15,179 nucleotides of DNA from a virus (Duplodnaviria > Heunggongvirae > Uroviricota > Caudoviricetes), in IMG/VR virus record IMGVR_UViG_2690316346_000009; one strand, 5' to 3'. Positions 3,001 to 9,000 of the stretch are shown one piece after another. The position numbers are program-made. How positions within the stretch are numbered: the stretch's first letter is position 1; the number at the start of each line of letters is the position of its first letter.

Positions 3001-6000
3001 CCGTTTCTGGCTGTGCATTCCTTCAGGGTAATAATCAGCATCCCTGACACCTGCCGCTGCCAGTTTCTGCCCGATGGTATTAACAAGCCCCGGACGCAAT
3101 AACCCCGCCTGGTAGAGACGCACCCGATAGCGTCCGTCCGGTACGATTTGCAGCTTATCCAGTTCGGCAAGTTGTTGTTCTCCAAGCCAGACAGGAGGCA
3201 CGCTGTCGCCAGCCAGTCGCCCGTCCTGTTCCTGCCACTGCTTCGCATGTGCCCACGCATCATTACCCGCAAAAATGATGACTTCCGTCATTTTGTCACG
3301 CGGCTGGTGTTTTAAATTTGGCGCTTTTTTCATTTCTGCTCTCTCCACGCGGCAATCATGTTTTTTAGTTCCTGTAGTTTTTTATCAACATCCATACATG
3401 ACACATGGTTATTTCTGGAAAGCGGGATTTCCCGCCTGAATCTGCTAATAAAGATCTCCACGTTCAGCGAACTATGAAATGAATAGCCATCACGAATAAA
3501 ATACACACGGTCAAACATCAGTTCTTTTACCGTTACTCTGTTACCGTTCTTATCCAGATAAATAGCGCCGGGGATAATTTTGGGGTGTGCATAACCGCTG
3601 GCAGTCAAGCCAGATAAATACGTTCTCATGATTATTTATCTCAGATTTGAATCAGTATTCGCTTTCTCTATGGCATTTAATGCATCTGTGGCATTTTCAA
3701 TGGTGCACCGTAACGAAATATCAAACTGCCCAAGCATTGCCAGTAACAAGCCAATATTACCCATGTCAATGCGCATAGCCTTTTCGTCATATTCCTCATT
3801 TTCTGACGCATGCCACATCAGGCTACCAATTGACGCAACAGCCATTGATATATTGTCAGTAGCCCCATCCGCAGCGGAATAAACCTTTTTAGCAATATCA
3901 TGCTCACAGTTAAAATGCGGATTAATCAGGTACTGGTAATTGGTCATGTCAGGCATGGCACACCTCCTGACGAATACGGGCGGCGAATACAGCAACACAA
4001 CCTGACGGGCAACGGTTACGCGCTTCGCGTTCCGTCCAGGCGGTTACGTGGATGATTTGAGATTCTCCGGCACTCAGGGCCAGAAAACGCCACACAAAGG
4101 CCGTTTGTGTGTGTACAAGGTGTGGTATATGATTTACGGCAACCATAACGGCTCCTCGTTTACGTTGTTGGTTAGAAGCCCTGCGAGTGGTAACGACACT
4201 TGCGGGGCTTCGTCGTTTCAATTGCTGAATTGCATGTATCAGCACTTGTGGTATTCACATTACATTTAGGTGAATACCATTTCAAGTCTTTTTTGGTATT
4301 CACTTTTGTATTACACTGCATCCCGTTATTAATGGGAGGTGCAAACATGTCCAGGAGTTCTGTTAACAATAAGTCACAGCAACTGAATGCCAGATTTCCA
4401 CATGAAGTAGTGAGTGGCATTGAGGCATCCCTACAGCCAGGGGAAACTAAAGCGAATTTTATAGTTACGGCTGTACGCGGTGAGATCGCCAGGCGCCAGG
4501 CAGAAGGAAGTGGAGAAAATCCCCTTGTGTCTTCACTGGATGCCCTAGCTAATGTCGAACAAATCGGCATCAAGGCAGCGGAGGAAATCGGGCAGCTTAT
4601 CACCGTTGCACGCGAAGAACTCCAGCGCCGCAAGGCCAAAGAATCAGAATAATCACTATCAGCGCCGTGGTGTGAGGAACTCCGGCGCATTGCTTTACAG
4701 GCGCACACAATGACCAACGAAGAATCAACCAAAAAAACATCACCTGCACGAAAAAGACGACGCAGAAAGAAAGAGCATGAATCAGAACGATTCGCGCCGT
4801 GTTCTTTTGCCCTTGAGAAGTACCTTAAAGAATACTCATCAAAGGAGAGAGCTTCGCAGTTATGGCAACGCACTGAAACAGACTGATAGCATTGCCCACC
4901 AGCCTGATAGCGGCTATCATTGACATGCTTATGTTTAGTGTTTCCAAACTGGCGACCGCCCCAGGTCGCCTTTGTTTTATGTGTCATATGCTCCCCTTTA
5001 CACTGCCTTACCTGAATTAATGCGATCCCGGCTTTTAACCCATTCCATAACCTCGGACAGCAGCCACCCTACAGAACGACCGCCCAGATTAAGACGTGAC
5101 GGAAAGCGCCCTTTTTTCTCCAGTTCGTAACGTGTAGTGCGGCACACTCCAGTTAACTTACGACATTCATCCTCACGGATTACGCGATCTTCATTTATTT
5201 CACGCATACAAAAACCTACATAAAAATTACGTATATAAACTTTTCTCTTAGCTGTAGATATATGAGATCGGATATTACTTAGATTCTTTTTCACCTCTTA
5301 AATTAAAAACACAACCATGCTGGTAATGACTCCAACTTATTGATAGTGTTTTATGTTCAGATAATGCCCGATGACTTTGTCATGCAGCTCCACCGATTTT
5401 GAGAACGACAGCGACTTCCGTCCCAGCCGTGCCAGGTGCTGCCTCAGATTCAGGTTATGCCGCTCAATTCGCTGCGTATATCGCTTGCTGATTACGTGCA
5501 GCTTTCCCTTCAGGCGGGATTCATACAGCGGCCAGCCATCCGTCATCCATATCACCACGTCAAAGGGTGACAGCAGGCTCATAAGACGCCCCAGCGTCGC
5601 CATAGTGCGTTCACCGAATACGTGCGCAACAACCGTCTTCCGGAGACTGTCATACGCGTAAAACAGCCAGCGCTGGCGCGATTTAGCCCCGACATAGCCC
5701 CACTGTTCGTCCATTTCCGCGCAGACGATGACGTCACTGCCCGGCTGTATGCGCGAGGTTACCGACTGCGGCCTGAGTTTTTTAAGTGACGTAAAATCGT
5801 GTTGAGGCCAACGCCCATAATGCGTGCAGTTGCCCGGCATCCAACGCCATTCATGGCCATATCAATGATTTTCTGGTGCGTACCGGGTTGAGAAGCGGTG
5901 TAAGTGAACTGCAGTTGCCATGTTTTACGGCAGTGAGAGCAGAGATAGCGCTGATGTCCGGCAGTGCTTTTGCCGTTACGCACCACCCCGTCAGTAGCTG

Positions 6001-9000
6001 AACAGGAGGGACAGCTGATAGAAACAGAAGCCACTGGAGCACCTCAAAAACACCATCATACACTAAATCAGTAAGTTGGNNNNNNNNNNNGCATTTAATG
6101 CATCTGTGGCATTTTCAATGGTGCACCGTAACGAAATATCAAAATGTCCAAGCATTGCCAGTAACAAACCGATATTCCCCATATCAATGCGCATGGCCTT
6201 TTCGTCATAGTCCTCATTTTCTGACGCATGCCACATCAGGCTACCAATTGACGCAACAGCCATTGATATATTGTCAGTAGCCCCATCCGCAGCGGAATAA
6301 ACCTTTTTAGCAATATCATGCTCACAGTTAAAATGCGGATTAATCAGGTACTGGTAATTTGACATATCAGGCATGGCACACCCCCTGACGAATACGGGCG
6401 GCGAATACCATCACGCAGCCAGCCGGGGATTGCTGGCGTGCTTCCTGTTCGCTGGTGGCCACGATGTGAATCACGCGCGGTTGTGCGGTGCTCAGGGCGA
6501 TAAAACGCCAGATGTATTTATTCAGGTTGTACGAGTCCCGCCCTTGCGGGTGTATGGTATGATTTCTCATAGCTGCCTCGATAATCTTGCTATCGTTGGT
6601 GGTTAGAAGCCCCGTTACTGCTCCTACAGTGCGGGGTTTCGTCGTTTCTGCACCTTGCATTAACAAGGTGTAAGTAACTTTATTTATAGGTGGCTTACAT
6701 GTCAATGCTTTTATGTAAGACTTTTTATTTGTATATTGTCTTACACTTTCATTGAGAGGATTACAGATGGCTACAGGTTCAAAAAACGCAAAATCACAAT
6801 CACTGACAGCTCGGATCCCGCATGATGTTATTGAAGGCATGGAATCCGTAAAACTGGACGGTGAAAGCAACGCCGGATTCATAGTAACCGCCATGCGCGG
6901 TGAAATCGCCCGCCGCCAGGCAGAAGGAAGCGGAGAAAACCTCCTGGTTTCTTCGCTCGATGCCCTAGCGCAGGTGGAAAAAATCGGAGTCAAAGCCGCC
7001 GAGGAGATCGGGCAACTCGTCACCGTCGCGCGTGAAGAACTCCAGCGACGCAAGGTCAAAGAGCAGGAATAGCCACTATCAGCGCCATAGTTTGAGGAAC
7101 GCAGGCGCATTGCTTTACAGGACAGCACCATGAGCGACACAGAATCAACCAAAACACCATCACCAACTCGTAAGAGACGACGCAAAAATATAGCGCATGA
7201 ACATGAATCAGAAAGATTCGCACCTTGTTCGTTTGCTCTTGAGAAATTCCTTAAAGAGCACAGGAAAAAGCTCTCGTTGCAAACCTTGGAACGAACCAAA
7301 TCTGACTGATCACATTGCCCACCAGCCGCAAATGTGGCATTGTTGGCGATGCGTTCAAGTTTAGTGTGTATCCATTGGCGACCGCCCCCGGTCGCCTTTG
7401 TTTTATATGTCATATGCTCCCCTTTACGCTGCCTTACCTGAATTAACGCGGTCACGGCTTTGCACCCAGTCCATAACTTCGGAAAGCAACCAGCCTACAG
7501 AACGCCCCCCAAGATTACGGCGAGACGGAAAGCCCCCTTTCTTCTCCAGTTCGTAGCGTGTAGTACGGCTGACGCCTGTTAACTTACGACATTCATCCTC
7601 ACGAATTACGCGATCTGTTAGTGATTGAAATTGTGTATTTTGATTCATAAAAACACCCTCGAACGTAACCGAACAAGGGCATCTTATTTACCATAGCAGT
7701 TGGTGCAATATTGGAAAAATAAACTTTATTCTAATTTATCGTTCTCCATGATTAATTTTCATTAGATAAAATTTTTCTTATTTTTTCTAAAGAATCGCTG
7801 CGCATTATTTTTTCTAAGAAGGGTTTTACAGTCTGAGCAATAGCAAAGGTGTCCTTTTCACCATCAGGATACAAAGATACGGCAAGCACCCCTAATGAAA
7901 TTTTTCTATCTGTAGACAACTCCCAAGATAATAAGTCAATTAATGGGATTATCTTATAATCAATAATTTTACGTCGTATGCTCTCCCAACTTCCTGCAAT
8001 TGGTTTGTCTGGCTCAACAATTGAAAGTTCACTACGCCATTTTGGTAATAGTTTTGTAAACGCTTCAATCAACTCATCATCTCTGTTATGTAGTAAGTCA
8101 ACAGAAACAAGCATATTATCTAATGTATCAGAAAGGAGATTCACTGGTTCACGCATCACAGCCCAAAACATCCCATTATCTTCTGATATTAAACTTCCAA
8201 CCATCTCATTATCTATGATGATTGGTTTATCCTTCCAATATCCTCTTTCCGCAGTCAGTTTATTAATCATTGATATATCAAATCTTGTTACAGGTTTAAT
8301 TCCATCATCATAACTTAGCTCAATTAACTTCGGTTGCACTTTATGGTCATATTCTTTTTGTTTATCACAAAACCAATCGTCTTCTTTCAGCTCTCCAAAT
8401 GGATCCCCGTAATTATTATGCAACGGGTATTCAGCACCAAACATAAATCCATATTCAGGCATCTCAGAATGTTTCATTGTTAAATCATCTTGTCGCCAAT
8501 ATAATTGGCGAAATAGATCTTTATCCGACAAGTTTTCTAGGCAATCATATTTGCCTAAATCAAATGACTTTGGTAAATCTTTTTTACTATTTACTTTTTT
8601 CGTCATTGTATCCCTCTCAATATCACAATATTTTCATTATATCCTGCAATCATATCAAGACGCTCAACCCATAGATTCAGTGCGTCCCGTTTCGCCTGCA
8701 AATAGCGTGAATGGTTATAGGTTTTTTGCTGACCTGGCATCTGATGCGCTGTGATGTGCTCCACGATATGCGGATCGACACCTAAATCATTCAGCATAGT
8801 TGTAAACGTGTGTCGGAAATCATGCAGCGTCCAGTGTTCCTGCTTAAGCCGCTTATGCGCATTTCGTCCATATTGCGCCACCGTGGTATCTTTTTTCAGT
8901 TCGCCGAGTAATAACCCAGTGTGTGCGTTTTGCTCCACCAGCTTCTGAATGAACGGCAAAATACCATCAGGAATAGGTCGGAATATTGTTACCTTCGTTT

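Follow-up and report, generated by a model that had tools for sequence, protein, structure and literature searches.

The DNA analysed here, referred to below as the window, is a stretch of 15,179 nucleotides from a tailed-phage record of IMG/VR (IMGVR_UViG_2690316346_000009). It contains two paralogous regulatory modules, A and B, each with a small regulator gene pointing away from a second gene set, and an insertion sequence (IS), IS1, stands between them. The first-pass annotation of the window described the modules as two elements with different repressor-operator specificities sitting in tandem. The locus raises two questions: whether the regulators and the repeats beside them differ between A and B as matched pairs, and whether the modules are truly neighbours. 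The comparisons described below support the view that A and B carry allelic putative repressor-operator specificities, and they point to the side-by-side position of the modules as probably an artefact of assembly.

Mosaic divergence of modules A and B

The same gene set was found in both modules, as had been annotated: an Icd-like gene, a gene encoding a 106-amino-acid (aa) protein, a divergent regulator gene, a small basic open reading frame (ORF), an intrinsic terminator, and alpA. Pairwise DNA alignment also bore out the mosaic divergence reported for them, which takes the form of blocks with high, undetectable, and intermediate identity. Positions 3673-3990 and 6091-6408 were 96.2% identical, positions 3991-4457 gave no blastn match to positions 6409-6877 (33-62% identity in 60-bp windows), and positions 4458-5190 and 6878-7616 were 80% identical.

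The regulators, previously put at approximately 75% identity with most of the divergence at the N terminus, were 72% identical overall; 24 of 45 residues (53%) matched in residues 1-45 and 49 of 56 (88%) in residues 46-101. The Icd-like proteins of A and B shared 53% identity, and both scored higher than the cut-off of their NCBIfam model, NF033153. The 106-aa gene products showed 3 differences in approximately 95 comparable residues, in agreement with the earlier value of approximately 97%; the description of the module B gene requires a correction, in that its final 37 bp have been lost to IS1 and a run of Ns. AlpA, annotated as approximately 88% identical, reached this value in the core and 81% overall, and both AlpA proteins matched PF05930 above the cut-off.

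Family and predicted fold of the regulator

Both regulators matched NF041551, the N-terminal domain model of the YlcI/YnfO family (curated cut-off, 30 bits), over residues 9-50 with 60.3 bits for A and 71.4 bits for B. A Pfam search with both proteins returned just a sub-threshold match to PF07704. The predicted model, with a mean predicted local distance difference test (pLDDT) score of 76.6, comprises a short N-terminal segment, helices at residues 19-28 and 35-52, and a long helix at residues 59-100. In hhalign, KSQQLNARFPHEVV was weakly placed on KMPQFNLRWPREVL of Arc (pairwise E 0.006), and the N-terminal strand motif also aligned weakly with Mnt (pairwise E 0.055). The variable part of the regulator consists of the eight residues directly before a conserved Pro-His-Asp/Glu-Val, where Arc and Mnt have their DNA-reading strand. 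We regard the regulator as a putative ribbon-helix-helix (RHH) protein that would bind DNA.

The remainder of the protein, residues 45-101 (window positions 4479-4652 and 6899-7072), contains the conserved sequence LDALAxVExIGxKAAEEIGQL. AlphaFold drew this C-terminal half as one long helix with pLDDT >90. In a profile search of the PDB, the only match was a weak, helix-hairpin-helix-like one between residues 45-86 and the HhH domain of Hef (1x2i, E 0.013).

Operator-like boxes and putative promoters

In both modules, the short region between the gene sets pointing apart contains three or four boxes of 7-10 bp. One gene set consists of the icd-like, 106-aa, DUF4222, and primase genes, and the other of the YlcI/YnfO-type regulator gene, the small basic ORF, and the terminator. 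The difference between the intergenic repeats of A and B that had been noted earlier proved to be real, and the repeats are non-random. In module A, TGGTATTCAC was present in three exact copies within 55 bp (at 4249, at 4270 as the reverse complement, and at 4294). When up to one mismatch was allowed, this sequence had 6 matches in the window, compared with a mean of 0.93 in 200 shuffles, none of which reached 6; the remaining three one-mismatch matches were scattered. In module B, RTGTAAG/CTTACAY was present in four copies of alternating orientation within 79 bp. These account for four of the six matches in the whole window, and 3.5 are expected per 15 kb.

The boxes are located around promoter-like sequences. 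The module A boxes flank a shared −35 region (TTTCAAGT, 4280-4287). A promoter scan detected a leftward promoter-like site in module B only (TTGACA-17-TAAAGT, 6705-6677); box 2 lies within its spacer and box 1 just past its −10 sequence. The counterpart in module A, TTGAAA-17-TAATGT, was read directly from the sequence. On the rightward side, a conserved TGTGTATAYT element is present between boxes 3 and 4, with a weak −35 sequence.

Co-variation of the regulator strand and the boxes

The first-pass annotation had asked whether regulator and operator variants change together in related islands, and a set of approximately 115 related loci was compared in this respect; a search of a genome contig collection for related loci gave 4 distant loci only. 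At least 11 variants of the predicted strand were found in the set, each with its own box sequence, and the variation within each type was low (Table 1). The different repressor-operator specificities proposed earlier for A and B are thus mirrored by the family at large. In most types, the region is laid out as box 1, an AT-rich spacer of approximately 15 bp, box 2, TCAAGT, box 3, TTTTTGTGTATACT, and box 4. Within a region, the boxes (three or four) change jointly, a pattern that requires a sequence-specific reader.

Table 1. Predicted strand variants of the regulator and the box sequences found with them.
Predicted strand	Box
SQQLNARF (module A)	GGTATTCAC
SQQINARV	GGTATTCAC / GCGATTCAC
SQSLTARI (module B)	RTGTAAG
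SQSVTARI	GTGTAAT / ATGTAAG
SQLTTVRV	GTGTTTCA
SQLFTVRV	GTGT(T/A)TCAC
SKQISIRI	GTGATTC
SQMTTIRV	GTGA(G/T)ATA
SQMKNIRF	GTGTRTRTAC
SQALAARV	GTGAAAAC / GTTGCACAC
SQIKNVRV	GTGTGCATT

The boxes followed the RHH variant and not the Icd-like or AlpA variant. They were unchanged when the SQQLNARF strand was accompanied by three Icd-like types and four AlpA clusters, when SKQISIRI was accompanied by three Icd-like types, and when SQSLTARI was accompanied by four AlpA clusters. These combinations bear on another explanation, in which the boxes are real operators bound by a different protein (the Icd-like protein, AlpA, or a helper-phage or host factor) and the YlcI/YnfO-type protein has some other role, for example as an antitoxin-like partner of the small basic ORF. 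The PHROG matches of the Icd-like proteins, phrog_1743 and phrog_6196, carry the label 'transcriptional repressor', and these proteins too diverge strongly between A and B. In addition, the AGGTG/CACC edge conserved on many boxes could be the common site of a conserved factor, and the RHH fold of the regulator is a prediction. The Icd-like protein and AlpA were nevertheless rejected as the binders, as their alleles assort independently of the boxes, and a conserved host or phage factor would leave unexplained the type-specific cores that change together at three or four positions. A different binder thus appears distinctly improbable.

The boxes were also kept across genera. When loci with the same or a nearly identical strand were compared with those of Klebsiella, Yersinia pekkanenii, a metagenome locus, Pseudomonas, and Yersinia enterocolitica, the identity was 96, 95, 83, 82, and 75% within the boxes, respectively, versus 73, 64, 57, 64, and 60% outside them. 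In Pseudomonas, Serratia, and Yersinia, regulators with a similar strand are accompanied by similar boxes. Furthermore, the distance between boxes increased with the distance between strands (2.25, 3.9, and 6.5-6.7 differences of 13), and the Mantel correlation of box and strand distances (r 0.27) was reached in 308 of 20,000 permutations.

Several observations weigh against reading this pattern as a set of matched regulators and operators. The boxes lie <130 bp from the regulator start, so that co-variation is confounded by physical linkage; the distant types represented by loci L117 and L119 show other box orientations; and the rightward promoter has a poor match to the consensus and escaped the promoter scan. 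The first of these points underlies a further explanation, namely that the repeats have no operator function, that the segment running from the Icd-like gene up to the regulator N terminus is a recombination cassette, and that co-variation reflects linkage alone. Boxes and regulator N terminus at such a distance would be inherited together, and the low variation within types is in keeping with this. However, linkage alone does not account for the joint change of the three or four copies to one new sequence at constant spacing and with constant promoter elements, for the better conservation of boxes than of spacer DNA between genera, for the similar boxes found with similar strands in Pseudomonas, Serratia, and Yersinia, or for repeat clustering far above chance. 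We regard it as very improbable. The tracking of the boxes with the regulator, their retention across genera, and the distance correlation argue that the variation across types is more than linkage.

As to the two distant types, L117 (1351-1500; SQALAARV) combines GTGAAAAC/GTTTTCAC boxes with boxes of a second kind, in which TGTTGCACAC is directly repeated, and L119 (1351-1500; SQIKNVRV) differs in the pattern of box orientation. With such divergent boxes, the operator grammar is not uniform across the family.

Proposed switch

The two gene sets may form two operons transcribed from back-to-back promoters, leftward for replication and rightward for the regulator, with the boxes bracketing the −10 elements of both. 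The regulator would act as an RHH-like dimer on each box, and its long C-terminal helix could link dimers and so bridge boxes 20-25 bp apart. It would thereby repress both the icd-primase replication operon and its own promoter, which makes it a candidate for the resident repressor of these islands, and modules A and B would be two of at least 11 'immunity' alleles. AlpA is the helper-induced activator of E. coli phage-inducible chromosomal islands (PICIs; PMC6092414), and as such it would act against the regulator.

Taken as a whole, the explanation that the modules are the switch regions of two islands of one satellite family, with the regulator working in this manner and the adjacency being artefactual, is the one we favour, and we hold it with reasonable though far from full confidence. 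For a broader proposition, the chances seem about even. It states that YlcI/YnfO-type proteins are the missing resident repressors of enterobacterial PICIs and capsid-forming PICIs (cf-PICIs), with a dozen or more heteroimmune alleles, and that the strand and boxes are exchanged jointly, as one cassette, whatever AlpA, Icd-like protein, integrase, and packaging genes accompany them.

Origin of the adjacency of modules A and B

Positions 10012-15179 (rcnR, rcnA, rcnB, yehA, and yehB cut by IS1) showed 100.000% identity to complete Shigella sonnei chromosomes and only 98.0% identity to E. coli Ecol_224; we infer that the window is an S. sonnei scaffold. In the region 13059-15179, yehB is disrupted by IS1 at 15128/15129, and the window stops 51 bp inside that IS1. 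Complete S. sonnei genomes have the identical yehB allele, down to its 667-aa remnant, and this identifies the host lineage.

The earlier description of the modules as tandem elements separated by IS1 was not supported: module A plus IS1 and the sequences flanking them belong to different islands, and both joins carry Ns. Positions 1991-6079, covering module A and IS1, were 99.93% identical to S. sonnei Ss046 over 4089 bp, and this sequence is located at clpS/cspD in complete S. sonnei genomes. On the other hand, one island at thiM/rcnR accounts both for positions 1-1989 (segment X), on its one side, and for positions 6091-9823, on its other; in Ecol_224, only 92 bp lie between segment X and module B. 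Segment X was 99.8% identical to island B of Ecol_224 (locus L001, 7293-9281) and 99.85% identical to locus L056, and positions 7752-9823, with the DUF6387 and integrase genes, were 99.9% identical to Ecol_224. Because thiM directly follows rcnR in the complete S. sonnei genomes inspected, the source strain carries island B as an extra island, with 99.8-99.9% identity to E. coli islands like the one in Ecol_224.

The joins themselves were informative. Positions 400-1989 and 1991-3580 form a 1.59-kb direct repeat of 99.06% identity joined by a single N, and its 15 differences are allelic differences between islands A and B. The Ns at 1990 (equivalent to 3581) and 6090 (equivalent to 3672) fall on sites polymorphic between A and B. 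In addition, the two 1.6-kb copies carry each other's allele at position 579; positions 579, 1884, and 1904 of segment X carry island-A alleles of S. sonnei, and the final 317 bp of the segment likewise carry island-A alleles. Swapped alleles together with Ns on single-nucleotide polymorphism (SNP) sites are the signature of mis-phased, 99%-identical paralogous regions laid side by side in a scaffold.

The arrangement could not be found elsewhere. None of 5,426 complete E. coli genomes covered 80% or more of positions 3300-9900, and the complete S. sonnei records inspected did not contain the arrangement. The alpA_A/IS1 junction was absent from the genome contig collection, the junction at 1990 from the viral and metagenome contig collections, and the chimeric primase ORF had no match in the gene index. 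A tandem array would comprise two elements at one attachment (att) site in independent assemblies; the window has one integrase gene. The side-by-side position is probably an assembly artefact, a false duplication of paralogous islands and not a tandem integration, in which an island-A contig (from clpS/cspD and ending in IS1) would have been put within its paralogue at thiM/rcnR, island B.

Against an artefact stands the run of 11 Ns (6080-6090), which holds IS1 at exactly 768 bp and keeps its register with module A; such a run is better explained by the masking of bases in continuous sequence than by a gap whose size was arbitrary. Moreover, a real IS1-IS1 recombination between inversely oriented islands would give exactly the alpA_A-IS1-106_B junction. 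The two related islands might then be truly adjacent at thiM/rcnR, through tandem integration or a later IS1 event that deleted or joined DNA. The window contains no long gap, S. sonnei is rich in IS1, and the islands at clpS/cspD and thiM/rcnR appear to be oppositely oriented, in which case IS1 recombination would be an inversion with the junction just mentioned. Tandem satellites, moreover, are known to occur (PMC10085698). Such an inversion, however, would place segment X elsewhere, so that at least one join is artificial, and the join at 1990 would be so even under real IS1 recombination: it has no IS, leads from the 5' part of DUF4222 into the middle of the primase gene, and carries its N on an A/B SNP site. 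The alleles swapped between the 1.6-kb copies also speak against true adjacency, as does the absence of the arrangement from the complete genomes. The same holds for IS1, which has no target-site duplication in the window (left flank, AACCATGCT; right flank, N+GCATTTAA), yet in complete S. sonnei has a perfect 9-bp duplication, AACCATGCT, on both sides, followed by the island's own integrase gene, int_A. Finally, module A's closest relatives are found with another integrase at another att site. True adjacency is therefore considered unlikely, and the apparent tandem, which comes from a draft assembly of an IS-rich Shigella, should not count as evidence of tandem satellites.

Satellite islands carrying the modules

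In complete genomes, each island has one copy of the module, and the gene order is int, (DUF6387), alpA, the small ORF and regulator genes on the opposite strand, the icd-like, 106-aa, DUF4222, and D5-type primase genes, the gene for single-stranded DNA-binding protein (SSB), and capsid/packaging genes. Related islands are approximately 10 kb in size and occupy fixed sites, namely thiM/rcnR, clpS/cspD, and a third site near acrEF. The integrase gene of the window adjoins rcnR, and the same site is used in at least 8 complete genomes; relatives of island A are located at clpS/cspD. The primase is represented in the window by positions 1-1757 and 1991-3348, and the homologous primase of related loci has D5_N, DUF5906, and Pox_D5 domains. 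Judged by this gene content, the modules are regulatory regions of phage satellites of the Gram-negative PICI/cf-PICI type.

The packaging genes, which lie outside the window, vary among complete relatives: L001 has a protease-capsid fusion and DUF1441, L002 and L101 have a full HK97-type set with the small and large terminase subunits (TerS/TerL), and L098 has lambda E/D-like genes and Nu1. The exact regulator protein of module B was found with three integrases, three packaging modules, and three att sites; the regulatory region thus behaves as a mobile cassette within the family. The features of the window are listed in Table 2.

Table 2. Features of the window.
Feature	Position	Strand	Remarks
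Segment X	1..1989	-	Primase gene (3' part cut at window start) and 5'-truncated DUF4222 gene; thiM/rcnR island (island B)
Single N	1990	.	Join of segment X and island-A segment; A/B polymorphic site (equivalent to 3581: T in A, G in B)
Primase gene of island A, N-terminal 1358 bp	1991..3348	-	99.88% to L009; collinear with S. sonnei Ss046
DUF4222 gene, island A	3330..3629	-	PF13973 on homologous gene
106-aa gene A	3636..3956	-	phrog_15327, function unknown; overlaps Icd-like gene
Icd-like gene A, 65 aa	3949..4146	-	NCBIfam NF033153, E 5e-18; first gene of leftward operon
Conserved leader hairpin A	4175..4211	-	Compensatory pairs across 10 leader variants
Module A boxes	4249..4303	.	TGGTATTCAC at 4249-4258 (+), 4270-4279 (reverse complement), and 4294-4303 (+); fourth position degenerate
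YlcI/YnfO-type (RHH-like) regulator A, 101 aa	4347..4652	+	NF041551, E 1e-16; phrog_6522; predicted strand SQQLNARF
Small basic ORF A, 58 aa	4710..4886	+	phrog_21027
Intrinsic terminator A	4951..4970	+	After rightward genes
alpA A, 69 aa from ATG at 5207	4998..5207	-	PF05930, E 2e-16
IS1, 768 bp	5322..6089	-	Last 10 bases and first flanking base are N (6080-6090)
106-aa gene B	6091..6374	-	Without 3' 37 bp
Icd-like gene B, 67 aa	6367..6570	-	NF033153, E 5e-20
Conserved leader hairpin B	6606..6640	-	Compensatory pairs across 10 leader variants
Module B boxes	6668..6746	.	GTGTAAG 6668-6674, CTTACAT 6694-6700, ATGTAAG 6713-6719, CTTACAC 6740-6746
YlcI/YnfO-type (RHH-like) regulator B, 101 aa	6767..7072	+	NF041551, E 5e-20; predicted strand SQSLTARI
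Small basic ORF B, 59 aa	7130..7309	+	63% identical to A
Intrinsic terminator B	7377..7396	+	After rightward genes
alpA B, 74 aa	7424..7648	-	PF05930, E 5e-16
DUF6387 gene, island B	7752..8606	-	Between int and alpA
Tyrosine integrase gene, island B	8603..9823	-	Adjoins rcnR

The IS1 copy between the modules contains the insA and insB ORFs, and its left end has the same sequence as the IS1 copy at 15129-15179. S. sonnei genomes show the same junction at the left of this element. In complete S. sonnei (L094/L091, 6242-7398), the island-A primase gene is split by an IS3-family element and IS1 lies between alpA and int; with these insertions, the resident island A of S. sonnei is probably defective. 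The DUF6387 gene has a G+C content of 0.34-0.37, far below that of its surroundings, and it is present in islands of the thiM/rcnR type and absent from those of the clpS/cspD type. It is possibly a cargo gene. No defence-system match was obtained with PADLOC for DUF6387, the 106-aa protein, DUF4222, the regulator, or the Icd-like protein.

Type-specific 226-bp probes found 231 places in 229 E. coli genomes for type B, 57 places in 57 genomes for type A, and 297 places in 294 genomes for the SKQISIRI type, and a whole-module probe found 1996 places in 1619 genomes. Pairs of one type were rare (2, 0, and 3 extra places, respectively). The counts give a hint, from a comparison too crude for interpretation, that islands sharing a cell tend not to be of one regulator type.

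Leader of the leftward operon

A conserved hairpin is present between the boxes and the start codon of the icd-like gene in both modules. Compensatory changes (AU/CG and GC/CG) preserve its stem, and its loop varies without relation to the regulator type. B-type leaders have another small hairpin, CGAUA..UAUCG, directly beside the icd ribosome-binding site, and the module A leader has not retained this second hairpin. An Rfam search of the whole window gave no family, C4 included, in positions 3600-7700 at E <= 1. With no Rfam match upstream of icd, a reading of the leader as a C4/CI antisense RNA of the P1/P4 type was dropped.

Comparison with known systems

The islands, known here from their sequences, share with Gram-negative PICIs and cf-PICIs (EcCICFT073 type, PMC6092414; SatelliteFinder families, PMC10085698) an integrase at one end, AlpA, a D5-type primase, small capsid/packaging modules (in complete relatives), a size of approximately 10 kb, and fixed chromosomal att sites. 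The Stl and Rpr regulators of Gram-positive PICIs (Staphylococcus aureus pathogenicity islands, SaPIs) resemble the present regulator in that they are divergent from the satellite replication operon, but they are larger helix-turn-helix proteins encoded on the same strand as int, and no sequence relationship was seen.

In the immI region of phage P22, the RHH repressors Arc and Mnt act on the overlapping divergent promoters Pant and Pmnt. By analogy, these two proteins are the closest mechanistic parallel to the present system, which likewise has a small regulator with an N-terminal strand that aligns with those of Arc and Mnt, operator-like boxes overlapping putative back-to-back divergent promoters, and a presumed logic of autoregulation combined with repression of the opposing operon. 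However, the similarity is weak, the regulator here has a C-terminal helix of approximately 40-45 residues, the boxes are 20-25 bp apart versus a single 21-bp operator in P22, and the element is a satellite and not a phage.

The mosaic heteroimmune cassettes of lambdoid phages (cI-OR-cro, imm434/imm21) are classic. As in these cassettes, a mosaic block containing the DNA-recognition part and the operators would be exchanged as a unit between nearly identical elements, and many alleles exist; the protein fold is different, and apparently only one regulator is involved here. In phages P1 and P7 and satellite P4, C4/CI antisense-RNA immunity is located upstream of icd. The Icd-like gene here is similarly the first gene behind a conserved structured leader hairpin, but the leader had no Rfam match and its loop is independent of the regulator type.

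Significance

The PICI/cf-PICI kind of island and the names of the protein families are already known. What appears to be new is the YlcI/YnfO-type regulator with allelic box types; a literature search on RHH or YlcI regulators in PICIs found no description of a YlcI/YnfO-type gene with type-specific boxes. In published work on Gram-negative PICIs, AlpA is an activator and the existence of a repressor was left open, and the divergent regulator described here is a concrete candidate for it. The predicted strand and promoter boxes, which vary together in at least 11 types, suggest a simple recognition code of three or four residues. If the proposed pairing is true, orthogonal repressor-operator pairs would become available for engineering PICI-based tools. 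It would also explain how several related satellites share one cell, and an S. sonnei strain could carry two islands of the same family, of types A and B, without regulatory cross-talk.

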